From an uncultured Fibrobacterota bacterium (lineage in GTDB: Bacteria > Fibrobacterota > Chitinivibrionia > Chitinivibrionales > FEN-1185): a stretch of 64,000 nt of DNA. Shown here piece after piece: positions 53,801-64,000 of this stretch. The position numbers and the translations under genes were made by a program. Location of the stretch: positions 128,001 through 192,000 of the forward strand of contig CAVWBU010000027.1 in assembly GCA_963753345.1 (NCBI GenBank). Direction: 5' to 3'. The notes under the pieces were generated by a model. The model was not told where the DNA came from. It worked only from the letters and a program-made list of their open reading frames with translations, and made no database searches. Position 1 is the stretch's first letter; each line of letters begins with the position of its first letter.

Positions 53801-55954
53801 ATGAAGAACGAACCGCATGCCGGCGGAAAGATCGACCAGAAACACGCCCAAACGCTTGCGCGGCTTTTCAACATCGCCTATAATGGCGCGATACTCTACG
53901 GCGGCACCCACCAGACCACCGTCGACGCCGCCGTTCCCTTTCACAGCTTCCTCATGAGGATTGTTTCCGGTGAAACCATGGTTTCCGTTCTTGCGGAGCG
54001 GGAGTCGGTCTTCGTGGAGAATTTTTGCATCGACAAGATCATCAACGTGAGGCGGCTCGTGGTGCATTTCAGGAAGCTCGGCCTTCAGTCGATCACGTTT
54101 TCAAAGGAGGTTTCGGTTGACGGCATACGAGCGCTTCTCGTTGTCCTCAGCGACGCCGAAGCGTATCCCAACGCAACCGCGATGCAGAACCGCCTTGCGT
54201 TGCTCAATGTCAAGGGAATCCGGCTCAATTATGTCGTGTATCGCAAGATGACCACGGACGAAAAGGTGGTCGATAAGAACGCCATCCATACCCTCGCGAC
54301 GCAGCCGCTCGGGCCGACACCCATGGACACCACCATTGTGAAACAAGTGCTCGACGGGCTTTCGGAGGTTGTGTCGGCCCGGCGGATCGTTGACGGGTTG
54401 CCTGCGGTTTCTTCGGCACCGGAGGGCGCCCAAGCGGCCGACCTTTCCACGCTGCTCGAACAGATGCGCGCGATTAATTCGCGCATCAACGATCCTGCCG
54501 CCGCGTCCGGCGACGGGCTGTCCATACAGGAAATGATGGAGTCCATTGTCAAGCTCAGAAGGGACGTGAACGACAAACTCGGCCTGATCCGCAAAACCCA
54601 TGCGCTCAATGAAACGGAGAATTCGGTCGTCAGCGAACTTGACACAATGAGCCATGAGGTGATGCTGCGGCTGCTCTGCGAGGAATACAAGCGCGGCGGC
54701 ATCTCCACCAAGCGTCTCGCGCAGATCACGCGGCGCATGATGCCGGACATCAAGGAGCTCAAGCGCATGCTGCCGCGGCTCAAGGACGCGCTTTTGAAAG
54801 AGGGCATGCCCCAGGCGGACTATCTCCAGTACGTTACCGACATCCTCAAGGACATCGAATCGGACGGGCTGGCCGGCGTATTTGAGGCGGCTGTCAAGGA
54901 CATCGGCGTGTCCATGGAAGAGCTTGTCGAGTCCATCCGCGCCGACCCGGCCGACGCGGCACGGCTCATCGTGCTTGCCTCCGAGATCCGGAAATCCTCG
55001 CGCTCGGACGATTCTCAGCTCTCGTCGCTTCTTACCGACTACATTGAAAGGGCGAGCCAGTCTCTGTCGCTCGAATCAAAGGACGTCGCGACCAAGGAAG
55101 GAATACATCTTCTCAAGTCTGCCATCGGCAGGATTGAAACCGATCTTGTCGAGAAGCTCCGGGGCCAGGGCATTCCCGCGGACGTTCTCGACAAGGCGTC
55201 GGGTCTTCTGCAGACGCGCCTCGATGCAACGGTGAGCGGCGCGAAACAGGAATGGGCATCGCGGTTTGTCTCGTCGCTCAAGGAACTCGGCGAAAACGAG
55301 CTCCTTCAGGTTCTCCGCGAGCTCTTTTCGCAGGAAGGCGGCGCAGATCTGGTGCGCGAGCCGCTTCGGAAGCTTCTCGCGTCGAAAGGCTATTCCGAGG
55401 AGAGCATCGTCCGGCTCATGGAAAAAGCGGCGTCAAAATCCGCGGCCGCTTCCCAGGAGCTTCCGAAGGGAATCCTGAATGTCAATGCTACTCTTTACTT
55501 TCTGGAACGCGAGATAAAACGGCACCAGCGGTACAACACGCCGTTTACGTGTCTCATCCTGACGAACGTGCGGGTCAAATCCAACGGGAACCCTTCGCAT
55601 ATTCCGACTGAAGGGGAGACCAAAGCGATCATGCCGCAGGTGCTCTCGTTCCTGAGGCATGTTTTGCGCGACCTGGACATTGTGGGTTCGCTCGGGCTTG
55701 TTTCGGGAGACGTGCCTTTCGTGGTGCTGCCGCAGACCGGGGATGCAGGGGCCGAAAAGGTCATCGAACGCCTGCAGCGCGATCTGAGCGCCCGGGCATT
55801 CGAAGCGGACGGCGCGCAGGTCAAAGGGTCATTCGCGCTGTCGTATTCTTCTTTTGACAAGACAACGATGACGGGATACCGTTCTTTTCTCGAGTTTGCG
55901 CTGGGGCGTCACCGGAAGGTGGAAAGCGGTATTACCTCGGCGCAGTCTTCCTGA
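53801..55954 (+). CDS. Large helical protein with degenerate GGDEF-like C-terminal domain
   Basis: N-terminal LYGGTH segment like HD-GYP/HEAT-associated N-domains; C-terminal FLEREIKRHQRYNTPFTCL...LRDLDIVG...FVVLPQT..GA..VIERL, without GGDEF. Confidence 0.7.
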   Translation: MKNEPHAGGKIDQKHAQTLARLFNIAYNGAILYGGTHQTTVDAAVPFHSFLMRIVSGETMVSVLAERESVFVENFCIDKIINVRRLVVHFRKLGLQSITFSKEVSVDGIRALLVVLSDAEAYPNATAMQNRLALLNVKGIRLNYVVYRKMTTDEKVVDKNAIHTLATQPLGPTPMDTTIVKQVLDGLSEVVSARRIVDGLPAVSSAPEGAQAADLSTLLEQMRAINSRINDPAAASGDGLSIQEMMESIVKLRRDVNDKLGLIRKTHALNETENSVVSELDTMSHEVMLRLLCEEYKRGGISTKRLAQITRRMMPDIKELKRMLPRLKDALLKEGMPQADYLQYVTDILKDIESDGLAGVFEAAVKDIGVSMEELVESIRADPADAARLIVLASEIRKSSRSDDSQLSSLLTDYIERASQSLSLESKDVATKEGIHLLKSAIGRIETDLVEKLRGQGIPADVLDKASGLLQTRLDATVSGAKQEWASRFVSSLKELGENELLQVLRELFSQEGGADLVREPLRKLLASKGYSEESIVRLMEKAASKSAAASQELPKGILNVNATLYFLEREIKRHQRYNTPFTCLILTNVRVKSNGNPSHIPTEGETKAIMPQVLSFLRHVLRDLDIVGSLGLVSGDVPFVVLPQTGDAGAEKVIERLQRDLSARAFEADGAQVKGSFALSYSSFDKTTMTGYRSFLEFALGRHRKVESGITSAQSS

Positions 55955-55985
55955 CAAGCATCTGTAATCTTGCAAAAAAAAAGAA

Positions 55986-56076
55986 CGGAGGGGAGAGGAT
56001 TTGAACCTCCGGTAGCGGTATTATCCACTACGACGGTTTAGCAAACCGTTGCCTTCAGCCACTCGGCCACCCCTCC
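55986..56076 (-). tRNA. tRNA-Ser(GCT)
   Basis: Minus strand GGAGGGG/CCCCTCC acceptor stem; ACGGT-TTGCTAA-ACCGT anticodon arm; long variable arm; GGTTCAAATCC; G discriminator. Confidence 0.96.
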
Positions 56077-56078
56077 AA
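56038..56078. repeat. att-like direct repeat, left copy (within the intact tRNA-Ser)
   Basis: TTAGCAAACCGTTGCCTTCAGCCACTCGGCCACCCCTCCAA, identical to 63643-63683. Confidence 0.92.
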
Positions 56079-56159
56079 CAATCTTATAACTTATTGGAGT
56101 TAATTAAGTTGCGAATTTTTCTTAAACTTACTTATTGGGCTTACTAAAATGCTTTTACT

Positions 56160-56193
56160 AAAAATATCGTCAGTAAATACTGACGATATTTTT
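56160..56193. terminator. Perfect 16-bp inverted repeat (bidirectional terminator or protein-binding site)
   Basis: AAAAATATCGTCAGTA-AA-TACTGACGATATTTTT. Confidence 0.6.
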
Positions 56194-56524
56194 CATTCGT
56201 AAAAAATATATAAAAGGGGATGGCAATGGGAAGAAAAAGTGAGCCATCTTGTTTAGATTCTGCAAACGGCAATATTTTTTTTGCAATGACATGATGTTAG
56301 TGACCTCTGCACGTCAGTGAAAAATGGATAGCTTCGTCTTAAGTATTGAAAATAGACCGCTCAAGTAATAGAATATTACATATACCACCAGATTCTCTCC
56401 TGTTGAGTTCCACAACAGTGCGGTGCTTGCATAGCATTCCGATAAGGAAAAGTCACAGGACGTATGTTTGCACGGGCTGTGGCCTTCAAAGCAGCGGCAA
56501 AAAACAGGAAATGAATTAACAAAT

Positions 56525-58681
56525 ATGACTGATTTCCACGGCAAACAAAAACAAGAAAAACCTATAGTGAACAGCGTGAGAGACGGCCTGCAACGTCAAA
56601 TGTCTTTCCGGTGGACAACACACCCCGTTTTATTCGCAGTGCTTTTATTCCTTGCTGGCGGCAGCTTGAGCTTCTGGATTGCCGTTCTGCAGCGCAATGC
56701 TGATATCAACTATAAACGCGATCAGGTCACCCTGGAGATTGATCATATCCGTAATGACCTCAGCCGCGAACTCTATGCGACCATCAACCTGACGCAGGGA
56801 CTTGTCGCCCTGGTGCGCATGCAAGGTGGCATACGGCAGGACCAATTTGAAGCAATGGCGCGCGAACTTAAGGATCGTAGCACGCTTATACGGAATGTAG
56901 CTCTTGCACCGGGAAATGTAATTCGATTTATGTATCCTCTTGCGGGAAATGAAAAAGCCATAGGCCTGGATTATCTGAAGACGTCGGACCAGGCAGGTAC
57001 GGTCCTGCGGGCCATTGAAGAAAATCGCATAGTTGTTGCCGGGCCAGTACGCCTTATTCAAGGTGGGGTCGGTATCATAGGCCGTACGCCGATTTTCCTG
57101 AGGGACTCGATTAATAGCGGAAAGTCGCAGCGCTATTGGGGAATTGCGGCGACCGTCATTAGTTTCGATTCGCTTGTCCATATGGCTGGAATCGAGACGG
57201 CCAGCGCAAATCTGTATATCGCGCTTCGTGGAGCAGATGGTACCGGGGCCCGCGGCAATGTTTTCTGGGGCGACAGTGGTGTCTTTGCTTCCGGTCCCGT
57301 GTTGATGGAAATCGCTTTACCTTCGGGAAGTTGGCAACTGGCCGCGGTACCGCGCGGTGGATGGCCTGCATTCAAACCTCTCGCTTCGGCATCGTTTCTC
57401 GCGGGATTTCTTATATCATTATTTTTCTCGATGCTGCTCTTTGAAACATTGCGTATCAGTCAATTCCGCGCATTCGAGATTGCCGAGCGGAAAAAGATCG
57501 AAGAAACCCTGCGCGAGCGCGAACGGCAGATTTCCATGATCTACGATACGGTCGGGGACAGCATATTCAATCTCAAAATAGAAAAGGATGGGAGTTACTG
57601 TTTTTCATCTGTCAATCAGTGTTTCCTTTCGACCACCGGGCTGCAAGCCGTTCAAATAGTCGGAAAACGGGTGCAGGATATTATTCCCGAGCCATCGCTG
57701 TCGCTGGTGTTGGAAAAATATTCGGAGGCAATCCGGGAGAGGAAGATCGTGCGATGGGAGGAGGTCTCGCAATATCCCACGGGACGGTTGATCGGGGAAG
57801 TGAGTATCGCCCCGATATTTGACGGGTCCAATACCTGCGTCGGCCTGGTTGGATCGGTTCACGATATCACAAAGCGAAAAAACGATGAAGACGAAATTCG
57901 AAAACTTAATTCCGAGCTTGAACAGCGCGTAGCCGAACGCACCGCAGAGCTGGTTGTGGCCAGGGACCGCGCAGAATCGGCCGACCGTGTGAAGTCCGCT
58001 TTTTTGGCCACCATGTCCCACGAACTGCGTACGCCGCTCAACTCCATCATCGGCTTTACCGGTCTCATCCTGCAAGGCCTGGCCGGGCCCTTGAACGCGG
58101 AACAAACCAAACAGCTCTTGATGGTGCAGAACAGCGGACAACACTTGCTTTCCCTCATTAATGATGTGCTGGACATTTCCAAGATCGAAGCAAGCCGAAT
58201 AGATATCGCCGACAAACCGTTTGATCTGTCCGGCTCCATCCAAAAAGTCATCAAAACCGTGAAACCCCTGGCCGACAAGAAAAACTTGCCTCTGGCAGCG
58301 CAGGTGGCGGTTGACGTAGGCGAAATTTCCGGCGATTGCAGGCGGGTTGAGCAAATCCTGTTGAATCTACTGAGCAATGCCATCAAATTCACCGAGAAAG
58401 GTGAAGTGCGTGTAGAGTGTTCTCTGGACAGGGGATTTGCTAAGATCCGTGTTGCCGACACCGGTCCCGGCATTAGGCCTGAGGATCTTGATAAATTGTT
58501 TCAACCTTTCCGCCAGCTTGACACCGGCCTGATGCGTCAGCACGAGGGAACAGGGCTGGGCTTGGCCATCTGCAAGCGGCTGGTCGAGCTGATGGGCGGC
58601 GCAATTACTGTTGAGAGCGAGTGGGGCAAAGGAAGCGCGTTCGAATTCACGCTACCCGTTCATCAGGAAAAGGGATCATGA
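56525..58681 (+). CDS. CHASE-PAS sensor histidine kinase
   Basis: TM; CHASE (YPLAGNEKAIGLD, AGPVRLIQGG..IIGRTPIF, YWG); TM; PAS; MSHELRTPLN; NAIKFT; DTGPGI; GTGLGL. Start 56525 or 56600. Confidence 0.92.
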   Translation: MTDFHGKQKQEKPIVNSVRDGLQRQMSFRWTTHPVLFAVLLFLAGGSLSFWIAVLQRNADINYKRDQVTLEIDHIRNDLSRELYATINLTQGLVALVRMQGGIRQDQFEAMARELKDRSTLIRNVALAPGNVIRFMYPLAGNEKAIGLDYLKTSDQAGTVLRAIEENRIVVAGPVRLIQGGVGIIGRTPIFLRDSINSGKSQRYWGIAATVISFDSLVHMAGIETASANLYIALRGADGTGARGNVFWGDSGVFASGPVLMEIALPSGSWQLAAVPRGGWPAFKPLASASFLAGFLISLFFSMLLFETLRISQFRAFEIAERKKIEETLRERERQISMIYDTVGDSIFNLKIEKDGSYCFSSVNQCFLSTTGLQAVQIVGKRVQDIIPEPSLSLVLEKYSEAIRERKIVRWEEVSQYPTGRLIGEVSIAPIFDGSNTCVGLVGSVHDITKRKNDEDEIRKLNSELEQRVAERTAELVVARDRAESADRVKSAFLATMSHELRTPLNSIIGFTGLILQGLAGPLNAEQTKQLLMVQNSGQHLLSLINDVLDISKIEASRIDIADKPFDLSGSIQKVIKTVKPLADKKNLPLAAQVAVDVGEISGDCRRVEQILLNLLSNAIKFTEKGEVRVECSLDRGFAKIRVADTGPGIRPEDLDKLFQPFRQLDTGLMRQHEGTGLGLAICKRLVELMGGAITVESEWGKGSAFEFTLPVHQEKGS

Positions 58682-59064
58682 AAAACAACATTCTTGTCAT
58701 CGAAGACAACGAGCAAAACCTCTACCTCGTGACATTTCTGTTGGAACAAAGTGGCATTAAGATTTTCGCGGCCCGAAGCGGACCCGAAGGAATCATACTG
58801 GCAGGCCGGATTCAGCCCGATTTAATTCTTCTCGATATCCAATTGCCATTGATGGACGGCTATGCGGTGGCGCGGGAATTGAGGCGCAATTCGGCCCTGC
58901 GGGACGTGCCTATCATAGCGGTGACTTCCTACGCGATGGTGGGCGATCGGGAGCGCGCTTTGGAAGCAGGGTGTGTGGGCTATATCGAAAAGCCGATTAA
59001 TCCGGCAACATTCTTGTCTGAAATTGAGCGCTATCTGCCTGCGCCTGGGAAAATGAACGGCTGA
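58678..59064 (+). CDS. Single-domain response regulator (DivK/CheY-like)
   Basis: ILVIEDN, LLDIQLPLMDG, AVTSYAMVGD, EKPI; ATGA overlap with the kinase. Confidence 0.92.
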   Translation: MKNNILVIEDNEQNLYLVTFLLEQSGIKIFAARSGPEGIILAGRIQPDLILLDIQLPLMDGYAVARELRRNSALRDVPIIAVTSYAMVGDRERALEAGCVGYIEKPINPATFLSEIERYLPAPGKMNG

Positions 59065-59074
59065 TGGGAGGCCC

Positions 59075-62000
59075 ATGAAAAAACTTCTCATTGTTGACGA
59101 CAATGAACAAAACCTGTACATGCTGCAGGTGCTTTTGTCGGCAAAGGTTTTCAAGTGGTACAAGCATCGAACGGCGCCGAAGCTCTGGATAAGGCGCGGT
59201 TGGCGCCCGAACTGATTATCTCAGACTGTTGATGCGGTGATGGACGGTTACGCTTCTGCACTATTGGAAGAACGACGAGCTCTCAGAAATACTTTTGTAG
59301 TGTACACGCCACTATACGGACGCGAAAGATGAGCACTTGCTCGGAGTTTGGGAGAGGAAGATTTATTTAAAAGGAATTGAAGCATTATGGTGCATAAAAA
59401 TGTGCTGGTGAAAGCGAAGCAAGGCAAACTGTCCCCGGTGCGTGAGCCGCGAGCGATAAAAAGGCATTGATGAATGAATACAGTGAAGTCCTGATCCGTA
59501 AATTGGAGGAAAAAGCTCTGCAGCTGCAACAAGCCAACGCACGCTTGAGAAGGACATCGCAGAGCGTAAAAAAACGGAGATTGCCTTGCGCCTCGATGGC
59601 GAGATAATGGCCAATATGGCCGAAGGCGTCCAGTTGACGAGAGAAAATGATGCGGTAATAGTTTATGTAAATACACAGTTTGAAAAGATGTTTGGTTACA
59701 GCCCGGGGGAATTGCTCGGGAAGCGTGTCTCTGTGCTTAATGCGTCTTCCGAAAAATCTTCCAGAGGCACGGCGGATGATATTATCCGAACTCTTGAGAA
59801 CAAGGGTACGTGGGATGGAGAAATCTTTAACGTAAGGAAAAACGGCGCGACATTCTGGTGTCATGCGAGCATTTCCACATTCGTCCATCCGGATCATGGG
59901 AAGGTTTGGATTTCGGTTCAGCAGGACATAACCGAGCGCAAACGGGCGGAGGAAGCGTTGCGCGAGAGCGAGGAGAAATACCGGAGCCTTGTGGACGGCG
60001 CCAGCGAAGCAATTCTTGTAGTGCAGGACGGTATGCTCAAATTCGTCAACCGCAGTGCCGTGGAGCTTGCGGGGTATACGGAACAGGACCTTATTGGGAA
60101 ATCTTTTACGGAATTATTTACCCGGATGATCGAAAGATGGTGGCGGATAGTTATGTGAAACGGATGAAAGGCGATTCTGCAACGTCGAGATATGAATTCA
60201 GGCTGTTTGCTGACGACATAAAATGGGTGGAAATAAACGCGGTCATCATAAATTGGAAAGGCAAGACTGCCACGTTGAATTTTCTCACCGACATCACCGA
60301 GCGCAAGCAGGCCGAAGATGTCCAACGCCGGAATTCGCATGATATGGAGTTCCTTTCACGCTCGGCAATGACGCTTGTTGAGTTGACGTTTGAAAAAGAC
60401 GTTTATCAGTATATAGGAGAACTGCTCAAGGAAATACTTCCGGAAAATACGGTGGCGGCCGTGAGTGAATTTGACGAATCCACGCGTGCATTTCACGGGA
60501 GGAACATCATTGGAATTGACAAGACGATTGGAGTGATAAGAAAAATCCTCGGCAAGGACCCCATGGAGCTTTCCGGCGACTTCGGGCCTACGGCGAAAAA
60601 AGCCTTGTTGAGCGGAAAACTGCAGAAGATAGACATGGGCTTGCAAGACTTTGCACAGATCATCCCTGATAGCATCGCTCGCGCCATAGAGAAGCTTCTC
60701 GGTATAAAGGCGTTCTTTGTTATCGGTTTTGTCAAGGAGGGTAAAGTGTTGGGCGGCCTCTCCATTTTCCTTCGCAAGGAGAGCGTGCTTGCCAATCCCG
60801 GCGCTATAGAGGCCTTTGCGGCACAGGCCGCAATAGCGATTGCGAAAAGGAAAGCCGAACAGTCGCTGCGCGAGAGCGAGGAGCGGTACCACACGTTGTT
60901 CGATGACGCCAAGGACGGGATCGCGCTAGCCGATGCCGAAACCGGAAGGATTGTCGAGTGCAACCAGGCGTTGTGCAGAATGGTCGGGATGGACAAAGAG
61001 GAACTTGTCGGGCAGATGCAGTCGTTCATTCATCCTCCGCAGACTCTGGTCAATGGAGAATCGGCGGGCTATATGAAGTATAAGAGAGGCGATCCGGAGA
61101 TGATCCTTGAAGAACAGCTTATATCGAAAAGCGGCGAATTGACACCGGTGGAAATCAAGGCCGCCCGTGTCCAGATGAACGGCCAAGACTACATGCTGGG
61201 GATCTTCCGCGACATCTCGGAGCGTAAACAACATGAAAAGGAAAAGGAACACCTCCAGGCCCAGCTTCTCCAGGCCCAGAAAATGGAGGCCGTAGGCACA
61301 TTGGCCGGCGGCGTGGCCCACGACTTCAACAATCTCCTCACCGCCATTTCGGGCTTCACGACGCTGGCCATGGGGAAAATAGACGAATCCGATCCCAGTG
61401 CAAAGGGACCTGAAACAGGTGAGCATCGCGGCGACAAAGGCCGCCGGTCGTCACACGCCAGCTCCTTCTTTTCAGCAGGAAACAGCACATGGAGCCTATG
61501 CCGATGGACCTCAATGCCACAATCAGCCGCCTGCTTAAAATGCTCGACAGGCTTATCGGGGAAGACATTGTCGATTGAGACAGACCTGGAAAAGGGCATG
61601 TGGAGCATTCTGGGCGACGAGGGAAATATCGAGCAGGTGCTCATGAACCTTGTCGGTAAATGCAAGGGACGCCATGCCCGAAGGCGGAAAATTATTCATC
61701 AAGACCGAGAATGTGACCATCGATGATGAATATTGTCGTCACGTACAAGACGGCCCGCCCCGGACGCTTTGTCTGCCTGTCGGTATCGGACACCGGCACA
61801 GGCATGGACGAACTGACGCTGGAGCACATTTTTGAACCGTTTTTCACCACAAAGCCGCAAGGCAAGGGAACAGGGCTCGGTTTGTCCGTGGTGTTCGGCA
61901 TCGTCGAGCAGCACAAGGGCTGGATAAATGTTTATAGCGAACTCGGACATGGCACTACGTTTAAGGTTTATTTCCCGTCTTCATCCGCCAGGTCCCGAAC

Positions 62001-62423
62001 AAAAAAGCAAAGAAGATGGTCCCCGCTTGCTTCCTTGGAGGGAAAAGGCGAGCGCATCATGATCGTTGAGGACCAGGCCGAGGTGCGTGCGACTCGCGAA
62101 GGAAATGCTTGCAACAAACGGATATTCGGTGTTCACGGTTTCAACCGCAAAAGAGGCGATGGAACTGTTTGAAAAGGAAAACGGCAGAATTCGACCTGGT
62201 ATTCAGCGATGTCGTTCTCCCAGATAGGTCCGGGATCCTGCTGGTGCAGGAGTTGCTGAAACGCTGGAAATTCGAGGTTATCATCACGAGCGGCTATACG
62301 GACGAAAAAGCTCATTGGGACTTTATAAAGGAGCACAACTATCGCTTTTTACACAAGCCATATGCCGTGCGCGATCTTTTGCAGGCGGTAAGGGAAGTGC
62401 TGGACGAAAAACGAGAAAGTTGA
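59075..62423 (+). pseudogene. Hybrid histidine kinase (REC-PAS-PAS-GAF-like-PAS-HisKA-HATPase-REC) broken by many frameshifts; decay or sequencing error
   Basis: Starts MKKLLIVDDNEQNLYML at 59075. Pieces continue across frames in ORFs 59586, 59858, 61650, 61723 and 62109 ([41 protein letters not shown]). Confidence 0.8.
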
Positions 62424-62436
62424 CAGGTGAATAACT

Positions 62437-63399
62437 ATGGAAAGATTAAAAGTCCTTATCGCCGATGACGACGGATCAATCAGGACCCTGGTAAAAGAGT
62501 ATCTGGAACAGAAAGGTTTCAGGGTCATTGTTGCGGTAAACGGAAATGAAGCCGTGATCCTGGAAGAAAGGTTACGGCCCGACCTGGTAATTCTGGACGT
62601 GGAAATGCCGGTGATGAGCGGGCTTGAAGCATGCAAAGCCATTCGGGCAAAACGGAGCGGTATTCATTACGTGCCGATTATTTTCCTAAGCGGCATTCTG
62701 GTGGAAGGCGCGGTTATCATGGGCCTGCAAATAGGCGCGGATGACTACGTACGGAAACCGTTTGAGGCCCTCGAACTTGTGAGCCGCATCAACAACCTCA
62801 TCAAAATGAAGAAATTCATTGAGCAGGTGGAATCAATCGAAAACGTGATTTTCTCCCTTGTCAAATCCATCGAAGCGCGGGATTCCTACACCGCCGGACA
62901 TTGCAGGCGCGTGGCCGAAATTTCGTCGAAGCTTGGCAAAGAGCTGGGGCTGTCCGGCGAGGAAATAAAAATCATCCATAAGAGTTCCATGCTGCACGAC
63001 GTCGGGAAAATCGGGGTGCCGGACCAGATACTCAATAAACAGGGCAAACTGCTTGATGAGGAGTTCACCCGAATCAAGGAGCATCCCGCGAGCGGCGGGG
63101 AAATCTGCGGGTGTCTGCGGCTCGCCGAACAATCTCTTGACATCATACGGCACCACCACGAAAAACTTGACGGAAGCGGATACCCTGACGGGTTGAAAGC
63201 GGAACAGATCAGCAGGTATGTGAGGATCGTCACCGTGGCGGACATCTACGACGCTCTGACGACCGACAGGCCCTACCGTGTGTCAAAAAGTGTTCCCGAT
63301 GCGATTGGCACATTGAAAAAAGAGGCTTCCGAAGGAAAACTGGACACGGGCATCGTGAACTGCATGGAGAAAATTTCCTACGGACAACAGGCCGCATGA
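62437..63399 (+). CDS. REC-HD-GYP cyclic di-GMP phosphodiesterase (RpfG-like)
   Basis: REC (ADDD, LDVEMP, KPF); EARDSYTAGHCRRV; LHDVGKIG; HHHEKLDGSGYPDGL; ADIYDALTTDRPYR. Confidence 0.93.
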   Translation: MERLKVLIADDDGSIRTLVKEYLEQKGFRVIVAVNGNEAVILEERLRPDLVILDVEMPVMSGLEACKAIRAKRSGIHYVPIIFLSGILVEGAVIMGLQIGADDYVRKPFEALELVSRINNLIKMKKFIEQVESIENVIFSLVKSIEARDSYTAGHCRRVAEISSKLGKELGLSGEEIKIIHKSSMLHDVGKIGVPDQILNKQGKLLDEEFTRIKEHPASGGEICGCLRLAEQSLDIIRHHHEKLDGSGYPDGLKAEQISRYVRIVTVADIYDALTTDRPYRVSKSVPDAIGTLKKEASEGKLDTGIVNCMEKISYGQQAA

Positions 63400-63642
63400 C
63401 CACAGGCCATGTTCTGCCCAGAAGCCGCCGACTCCTGTCGCAGAGCAATATTGTATTTTAAATAAGTACGTGAGGAAGGGGAGGGCTGAGGTCTATTTTG
63501 ATTGGGTTGAAGAATAGCTTCTTTGTTGTCAATAACTCACCATAAATTCGCAGCCGACACCGAAGAGATGATTTTTGTCTTTATTTTGTCTTTATCGGCT
63601 AAGAAGTGCCGAATTTCGCAGGAAAAACGCGAACCAGAGGAC

Positions 63643-63683
63643 TTAGCAAACCGTTGCCTTCAGCCACTCGGCCACCCCTCCAA
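63643..63683. repeat. att-like direct repeat, right copy = displaced 5' half of tRNA-Ser(GCT)
   Basis: 41/41 identical to 56038-56078; identity stops exactly at the edge of the anticodon loop. Confidence 0.92.
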
Positions 63684-63723
63684 ACGAGGATTGTCAAGCG
63701 CGGAATCAAAAAAATGATGTCTA

Positions 63724-63752
63724 AATATACTACGTAAGGATTTGCATTACAA
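63724..63752 (-). promoter_or_regulatory. Putative original tRNA-Ser promoter
   Basis: Minus strand TTGTAA-17 bp-TATATT, about 40 bp upstream of the tRNA 5' fragment; same -10 hexamer as other candidate promoters in the window. Confidence 0.55.
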
Positions 63753-63915: not shown

Positions 63916-64000
63916 ATGGATTCCATTAAACGCTCCTATCATAGATACCTTAGGTATTTCCTTTCCAAGGACGATGCCACTGCCACGCCCTACGATAAAT
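63916..64000 (+). CDS. glgP: Probable glycogen phosphorylase, N-terminal 28 aa only
   Basis: MDSIKRSYHRYLRYFLSKDDATATPYDK resembles the phosphorylase N-terminus (L.Y.L.KD...AT..D); only a short fragment is visible. Confidence 0.55.
   Translation, partial: MDSIKRSYHRYLRYFLSKDDATATPYDK

Follow-up and report, generated by a model that had tools for sequence, protein, structure and literature searches.

A probable anticodon-loop island that supplied the front half and upstream DNA of a single-copy tRNA-Ser(GCT) gene in an uncultured Fibrobacterota bacterium

The window analysed here (64,000 nucleotides of contig CAVWBU010000027.1, assembly GCA_963753345.1, from an uncultured Fibrobacterota bacterium) contains a minus-strand tRNA-Ser(GCT) gene whose 5' half occurs a second time, 7.6 kb upstream of the gene. 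The interval between the two copies is probably an island, decayed or served in trans, that entered by a site-specific crossover in the anticodon loop, brought a tRNA 5' half and upstream DNA of its own, and occupies a genus-wide hotspot. The two 41-bp repeats would be the attL- and attR-like scars (att, attachment site) of an integration with reversed (5') polarity: the incoming DNA would have brought tRNA nucleotides (nt) 1-39 along with its own upstream region, a 165-bp "type A" module with a putatively insulating hairpin; the working gene would be composed of the host 3' half and the incoming 5' half; and the old host 5' half with its promoter would have been pushed 7.6 kb away, beside the glycogen phosphorylase gene glgP. 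Recombination was most likely the work of a tyrosine integrase, lost from the interval or encoded elsewhere, and later changes would have turned the interior into a patchwork of two-component genes, one of which is dead. On this reading, the sole Ser(AGY) tRNA of the organism now relies on upstream DNA that arrived with the insert. The elements on which this argument turns are:

55986..56076, minus strand: tRNA-Ser(GCT) gene, intact and single-copy (ARAGORN 55985-56077; Rfam tRNA model 55986-56076)
56038..56078: repeat copy 1, an attL-like core in the working gene, probably supplied by the insert; tRNA nt 1-39 plus two upstream bases
63643..63683: repeat copy 2, attR-like, probably the displaced ancestral tRNA 5' half; an exact repeat, with upstream DNA homologous to that of the tRNA gene of a relative (G003)
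63724..63752 (63752->63724), minus strand: predicted displaced ancestral tRNA promoter, TTGTAA-17-TATATT (promoter scan)
56079..56242, minus strand: type A upstream module, ~165 bp, which now precedes the tRNA
56160..56193: bidirectional terminator-like hairpin in the type A module, an exact 16-bp palindrome with a run of T on each strand

The evidence starts with the repeat. Its copies are 41 nt long, 100% identical, in direct orientation and 7605 bp apart from start to start, and a genome-wide search at up to three mismatches returns these two and no others (a reversed control gives 0); an exact repeat of this length is far beyond chance. Its borders coincide with landmarks of the tRNA: read on the other strand, TTAGCAA (56038-56044) gives the 7-nt anticodon loop TTGCTAA, which is closed by a 5-bp stem (ACGGT/ACCGT), and 56033-56049 reads ACGGT-TTAGCAA-ACCGT, the complement of the complete anticodon stem and loop. 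The repeat thus takes in the whole loop, beginning at its 3' border, and ends two bases upstream of tRNA nt 1, and the extra 5'-half fragment lies upstream of the intact gene in identical orientation. The initial annotation had described the exact repeat, its start at the anticodon loop and its run to the 5' end of the tRNA, the position of the fragment upstream of the intact minus-strand gene beside TTGTAA-17-TATATT, and the possibility that the gene is single-copy; repeat and pattern searches, the sequence itself and the promoter scan bear out the first three, and the tRNA census confirms the last, with one GCT (AGY) decoder among 53 tRNA genes in an assembly that is 94.26% complete.

Which of the two 5' halves is the original one? 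The answer comes from five genomes of the same genus (congeners, G001-G005), compared with the 55-contig draft to which the window belongs (G000). Two protein genes frame the locus:

53801..55954, plus strand: conserved gene of 717 amino acids (aa), the stable left flank on the 3' side of the tRNA (Pfam: no family)
63916..64000, plus strand: start of glgP (glycogen phosphorylase, 803 aa), the stable right flank, which continues past the window (Pfam Phosphorylase, E = 1.5e-255)

A Ser/Thr kinase gene, the 717-aa gene and the minus-strand tRNA-Ser(GCT) gene are kept as in the window in all five congeners, and the 717-aa gene, at 42-92% aa identity, adjoins the tRNA each time (a short contig of G001 has only its C-terminal 414 aa); glgP keeps its strand and its side of the tRNA in the four congeners that have both genes on one contig. 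What varies is the distance from the tRNA to glgP:

G003: 0.44 kb (441 bp)
G000: 7.8 kb
G005: 14.9 kb
G002: 16.4 kb
G004: 83 kb

With order and orientation constant and gap length variable, the tRNA-glgP interval is a hotspot throughout the genus. G003 provides the empty site that the initial annotation had asked for, its tRNA lying 441 bp from glgP; the result that would have counted against that annotation, cargo-free relatives in which the tRNA is not beside glgP, did not arise. The displaced fragment and the DNA upstream of it (63643-63737) are 79% identical, over 96 bp, to the 5' half and promoter of the G003 tRNA gene, and the displaced promoter aligns with TTGCGA-17-TATATT upstream of that gene. 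From this homology, the displaced fragment and promoter therefore appear to be the ancestral front of the gene, and the working 5' half would have come with the insert. The proposal that an element supplied the 5' half and upstream DNA of the intact gene is thus supported by both the empty site and the homology.

The arrangement seems to be young. G001, the sister genome, which is 73% complete and 91% identical in the DNA of the flank, has no type A module at its tRNA and no fragment within 400 bp of glgP, and no match to the CHASE kinase gene or the HD-GYP gene of the window (see below) was found in it. Because the sister genome is without it, the present arrangement, with its unmutated repeats, is probably younger than the split between G000 and G001; the alternative is that the locus was overwritten in G001. 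The variable intervals of two other congeners (G004 C14:52142-64365 and G005 C19:49349-62000) share glycan-related secreted proteins, namely GH30 and a protein of ~1180 aa with PKD/Reg_prop domains; that of G004 also encodes PEGA-CsgG, Fib_succ_major and Kelch proteins, and an SRAP peptidase gene adjoins its tRNA.

The same breakpoint recurs in the genus. When 81 genomes of the order were searched for the 39-nt pattern (up to three mismatches), 29 had a match and three had two copies: G000, G004 and G005. In G004 the displaced 5' half, which differs at 3 of 39 positions, is 12.2 kb away from the gene and starts at the same TTAGCAA (+0); in G005 it lies 1.45 kb from the gene and the match runs 2 nt past TTAGCAA. 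The DNA on either side of the displaced fragments is unrelated among the three genomes. G005 presents a stack: a 1.45-kb unit with a single secreted-protein gene and an upstream region of another kind ("type B") stands in front of an older type A junction. Extra decayed fragments, beyond the known three, were not found in the full intervals of G000 and G002-G005 or in the partial contigs of G001.

A similar arrangement is seen at another gene of G000, tRNA-Lys(CTT), of which nt 1-40 are repeated 5.5 kb upstream, ending at loop position +2 (C40:82444-88049). The cargo there comprises an AEP-TOTE primase-helicase (815 aa), an AbiEi/AbiEii pair and an unknown protein of 181 aa, with no recombinase among the open reading frames (ORFs) of the interval; the primase-helicase was not found in the five congeners and matches 11 other genomes of the order. 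At tRNA-Ser(CGA), a 22-nt exact copy of the 5' end lies ~150 bp upstream in the same orientation (C21:46205-46226), too short to reach the anticodon loop. The tRNA fragment census of G000 also contains ordinary 3' fragments, of tRNA-Arg(CCT), Thr(CGT), Arg(ACG), Phe and Lys(CTT), and integrase genes lie directly beside tRNA-Arg(ACG) and tRNA-Phe. Counting the tRNA-Ser breakpoints of three genomes and the tRNA-Lys breakpoint of G000, four joins lie 0-2 nt from the point where the anticodon loop ends on its 3' side. Coincident breakpoints amid otherwise unrelated DNA speak for a site-specific recombinase whose overlap is centred on the loop, because illegitimate recombination would not be expected to produce them.

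What, then, did the insert place in front of the gene? The type A module is 90% identical over 207 bp to DNA that adjoins the displaced fragment in G005 and 82% identical over 258 bp, tRNA included, to the region upstream of the G002 tRNA; ~40 bp of it are found upstream of the tRNA in G004. Type B, in turn, is the upstream region of the working tRNA gene in G005 and G001. The type A module is single-copy in G000, and a gapped motif scan for further copies returned one genome stretch (G002) and one metagenome contig, which is probably G005 DNA. Outside the tRNA part, the modules of G000 and G005 are ~88% identical, against 68% DNA identity for the neighbouring 717-aa gene; this sharing would fit a common att arm on different cargos, 166 bp being little to go on.

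The module also bears on where the tRNA promoter may be. Its palindrome is predicted to fold into a 15-bp stem (whole leader, z = -5.5) and, because this terminator-like hairpin occupies 56160-56193, the promoter would have to lie in 56078-56159. Upstream regions of types B, C and D show a clear TTGnnn-17-TATATT some 40 nt before the tRNA. In 56078-56160 the promoter scan detected no sigma-70-like site, the only one being at 56232->56205, beyond the hairpin; judging from the layout of the DNA, the tRNA would now be transcribed from 56078-56160. Two small features of the module may be recorded. An invariant ACTCCAA stands in the leader of all four type A genomes (56073-56098 in the window) and is predicted to form a 9-bp helix with the 5' acceptor strand of the tRNA. 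Divergent from the tRNA, at 56216-56290, a small ORF with a strong ribosome-binding site starts M[AV][MI]GRKSE...; this start is kept in four genomes (also L025, L026, L027), and the ORF stops or diverges after 7-10 codons, exactly at the end of type A homology. It may be the stump of a gene lost from the incoming element; as a candidate remnant of an integrase, it has only one other genomic match, a chance one inside a coding region.

All five larger frames of the interval encode signalling proteins by Pfam:

56468..58681, plus strand: CHASE-PAS histidine kinase, 737 aa (Pfam)
58621..59064, plus strand: single-domain response regulator (Pfam Response_reg)
59523..62414, plus strand: PAS histidine kinase pseudogene in at least three frames, pieces of which match PAS and HATPase_c
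62437..63399, plus strand: response regulator with an HD-GYP domain (RR-HD-GYP; Pfam)

The CHASE kinase has no full-length match in 20 other genomes searched; just 5' of it, 56339-56422 is 90% identical to the region upstream of a kinase paralogue on contig C32 of G002. The PAS kinase is broken by several frameshifts, its neighbours being intact: aligned by tblastn to intact G002 homologues, it switches frame 3->2->3/1->2->3, at least four changes over 59523-62414. Its DNA is 77-85% identical to G002 loci on C5, C11 and C32, and 83-85% identical to the paralogues G002:C11, G002:C32 and G001:C382; among the five congeners, G001, G002 and G005 have kinase paralogues. The RR-HD-GYP protein, of which G000 has no second copy at E <= 1e-40, shares 81% aa identity with the product of a G002 gene located elsewhere (C5), behind an intact PAS kinase gene; this pair is collinear with 59924-63368 at 73-77% DNA identity, and the 81% is about equal to the aa identity of glgP between G000 and G002 (80%). 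Two genes flanking the operon on G002:C5 have orthologues on contig C36, 41 kb apart. The cargo is thus a genus-level mosaic of two-component genes that, by sequence comparison, is not obviously foreign. The GC content of the interval, 0.505 against 0.559 for the genome, counts in favour of an island; it falls to 0.34 in the 390 bp adjoining the tRNA.

If the island was integrated, where is its integrase? A Pfam scan of the ORFs of the interval and a PHROGs scan of nine of them found no recombinase. A six-frame search of G000 with PF00589 (tyrosine recombinases) gave eight matches, none of them on the island contig (C27), and the 34 matches in the five relatives likewise lie away from the island contigs of G002, G004 and G005. 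The serine recombinase family PF00239 has no match in the G000 genome. In sum, neither a tyrosine nor a serine recombinase was found in any tRNA-glgP interval. With this absence, a kinase pseudogene, and genus-typical cargo that has G002 homologues elsewhere, the suggestion that the 7.6-kb interval is mobile at present was not borne out.

A run search for DNA matching the locus listed eight DNA runs from two studies (peat, freshwater sediment and soil metagenomes) and no RNA run, which has no bearing on expression. The comparison used short k=31 contigs of four runs from both studies; these carry island and flank sequence at 99-100% identity. As they break off within the repeat, with ends at 56055-56071 and starts at 63647, they give no confirmation of the joins. 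Per-contig depth in two of the runs (X1 and X4) is ~3-5 for the island and ~7-9 for the flank, depths that are not comparable. Versions of 59397-59974 with ~92% identity and many 1-bp differences are found in the same metagenomes. In X2 and X4, one contig each joins this tRNA 5' half to another upstream region, with a TATATT-type promoter motif that resembles type B; other variants of the 63684 junction therefore co-occur in the same samples.

Several of these observations weigh against a site-specific island and keep our confidence in it moderate. The enzyme would have to be supposed, since no recombinase gene was found at the island; the island-side DNA at the three displaced fragments shows no common core-type half-site; part of the cargo, with homologues of the kinase and RR-HD-GYP genes at other loci, is not foreign to the genus; and no k=31 contig bridges either junction, nor does a 56038/63643 joint appear among the 15 listed of 31.

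Four other explanations deserve attention. The lack of a recombinase in all three fragment-bounded tRNA-Ser intervals suggests that the loops of tRNA-Ser(GCT) and tRNA-Lys(CTT) might host live cassettes devoid of a recombinase, small units of a promoter, a tRNA 5' half and a few genes, which are inserted, stacked and excised by an enzyme acting in trans and turn over faster than species diverge. The G005 unit, 1.45 kb with one secreted-protein gene and a near-perfect repeat, can never have had room for an integrase; its type B unit stands in front of a displaced type A module, as stacking would require; and the closest relative, G001, has type B rather than type A and no fragment upstream of glgP. 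Yet no candidate for the trans recombinase was identified; among 75 other genomes of the order none has a second copy of the 5' half (up to three mismatches), and of at least 79 stretches with the same 5' half elsewhere, the matches listed comprise 77 inside intact tRNA genes and two cut by the end of a contig or stretch, with no clear displaced fragment. Nor is there a tRNA gene beside homologues of the G005 cassette gene or the tRNA-Lys primase-helicase (0 of 10 loci, ~1.5 kb on each side where the contig allows), and neither a circle nor an empty-site joint is among the 15 joints listed of 31. We regard live cassettes as unlikely, and their stronger form, a genus-specific, integron-like capture system in which recombinase-free cassettes endowed with a promoter and a tRNA front half are moved by a recombinase encoded elsewhere, as distinctly unlikely. 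If it were true, the attachment site would be an essential tRNA gene and each insertion would rewire the promoter of that tRNA. An integron cassette array proper was considered and rejected: no integrase is adjacent, and the repeats, being halves of a tRNA gene, are unlike attC hairpins.

The absence of a recombinase gene also suits an origin that is not site-specific at all, in which the half-gene was copied by homologous or illegitimate recombination, for example with a segment from a relative anchored in the tRNA, or native two-component genes were rearranged locally. Cargo homologues at other loci of the genus with about orthologue-level identity would be expected in this case, and type A is the plain upstream region of the tRNA in G002. 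What makes this origin quite improbable is the precision of the joins, for breakpoints scattered over a 91-nt gene would not be expected to fall four times within 2 nt of the loop edge, and a 5' fragment upstream in direct orientation is exactly the layout of an integration product. Could the displaced half-gene and its promoter have been kept by selection, as a source of a tRNA-half-like RNA or of an antisense to the RR-HD-GYP gene? Selection would explain the 41/41 identity; the promoter-like site is intact and resembles the tRNA promoters of congeners, and the fragment is unmutated where that of G004 has 3/39 mismatches. However, the predicted transcript has neither a special fold (z = -0.49) nor an Rfam match, the G004 and G005 fragments are already decaying, and a recent event accounts for the identity equally well, as the sister G001 lacks the arrangement; selection is accordingly a very improbable cause. 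Hardly credible, finally, is an assembly artefact, a chimeric join in the metagenome bin that would have created the second half-gene: the assembly is a draft in 55 contigs and the k=31 contigs do break inside the repeat, but 41 bp is shorter than a sequencing read, the fragment continues into G003-promoter-like DNA and then glgP as a true ancestral site would, and G004 and G005 were assembled independently with the same layout.

An island from anticodon-loop integration, now decayed or served in trans, is therefore the reading that we carry into a comparison with known systems. Remnants flanked by att sites that result from the accretion and decay of integrative elements are known as cis-mobilizable elements (CIMEs), for example those of the ICESt1 family. 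The island resembles these in its att-type direct repeats, its lack of recombination genes, the tandem stacking (in G005) and the integrase in trans that its mobilization would need. Unlike CIMEs, it has 5' rather than 3' polarity, and no cognate integrase-bearing element has been found at the site in any of the six genomes of the genus; an att site matching such an element was sought and not found, the tRNA-glgP intervals of the four one-contig congeners being free of an integrase. A phage or virus carrying the tRNA-Ser 5' half was likewise looked for, with 0 viral contigs found.

Islands in tRNA genes (tDNA) with a displaced 5' fragment and an anticodon-centred att site were reportedly first described by Zhao and Williams in the Journal of Bacteriology (184:859) in 2002. 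The closest known class is the one with 5' fragments in the Islander collection of Hudson, Lau and Williams (2015). An anticodon-centred site is a known class according to a passage that cites Zhao and Williams (2002) in PMC6563490, and the Islander paper gives 2083 such sites and, in its Table 1, 3919 islands, of which 3760 have a 3' and 159 a 5' tDNA fragment (PMC4383910). The reversed polarity, which the initial annotation took to be unusual, is consequently not new, being that of these 159 of 3919 islands (PMC4383910, Table 1). Like the members of that class, the locus has an intact tDNA with a matching end fragment, the 5' one, placed upstream of it as a direct repeat; a crossover at the anticodon loop (site class A), the boundary being the same in G004 and shifted by 2 nt in G005; a length of 7605 bp, within the range of 2-200 kb; an unoccupied site in a relative, G003; and a gene that would be restored by the island's own copy. 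It differs in having no integrase in or overlapping the island of the window, and in a cargo that is a genus-typical signalling mosaic with a pseudogene and no sign of present mobility. The Islander pipeline requires an integrase in the island (PMC4383910), and its filter would reject this one. Because finders with this requirement miss 5' islands that are decayed or served in trans, the 4% share of 5' islands that follows from the Islander table (PMC4383910) is probably an underestimate.

The more familiar tRNA islands and prophages have 3' polarity and fall into the sublocation classes of Williams (2002), according to passages in PMC4383910 and PMC6563490. They share with the present locus the restoration of the target and the sublocation in the anticodon loop, and G000 itself has such cases, two of them with an adjacent integrase. 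They are unlike it in what is restored: here it is the 5' half, with the promoter exchanged too and the old one left pointing into the island. Both the mechanism class and the polarity are already known, and the locus shows every structural feature of the Islander 5' class except the integrase. The lack of a recombinase in any copy leaves room for a trans-served cassette mechanism. Backed by an empty site and, within the genus, by two more scars that are independent of this one, this locus is a clean example of the minority mode of integration into tRNA genes.

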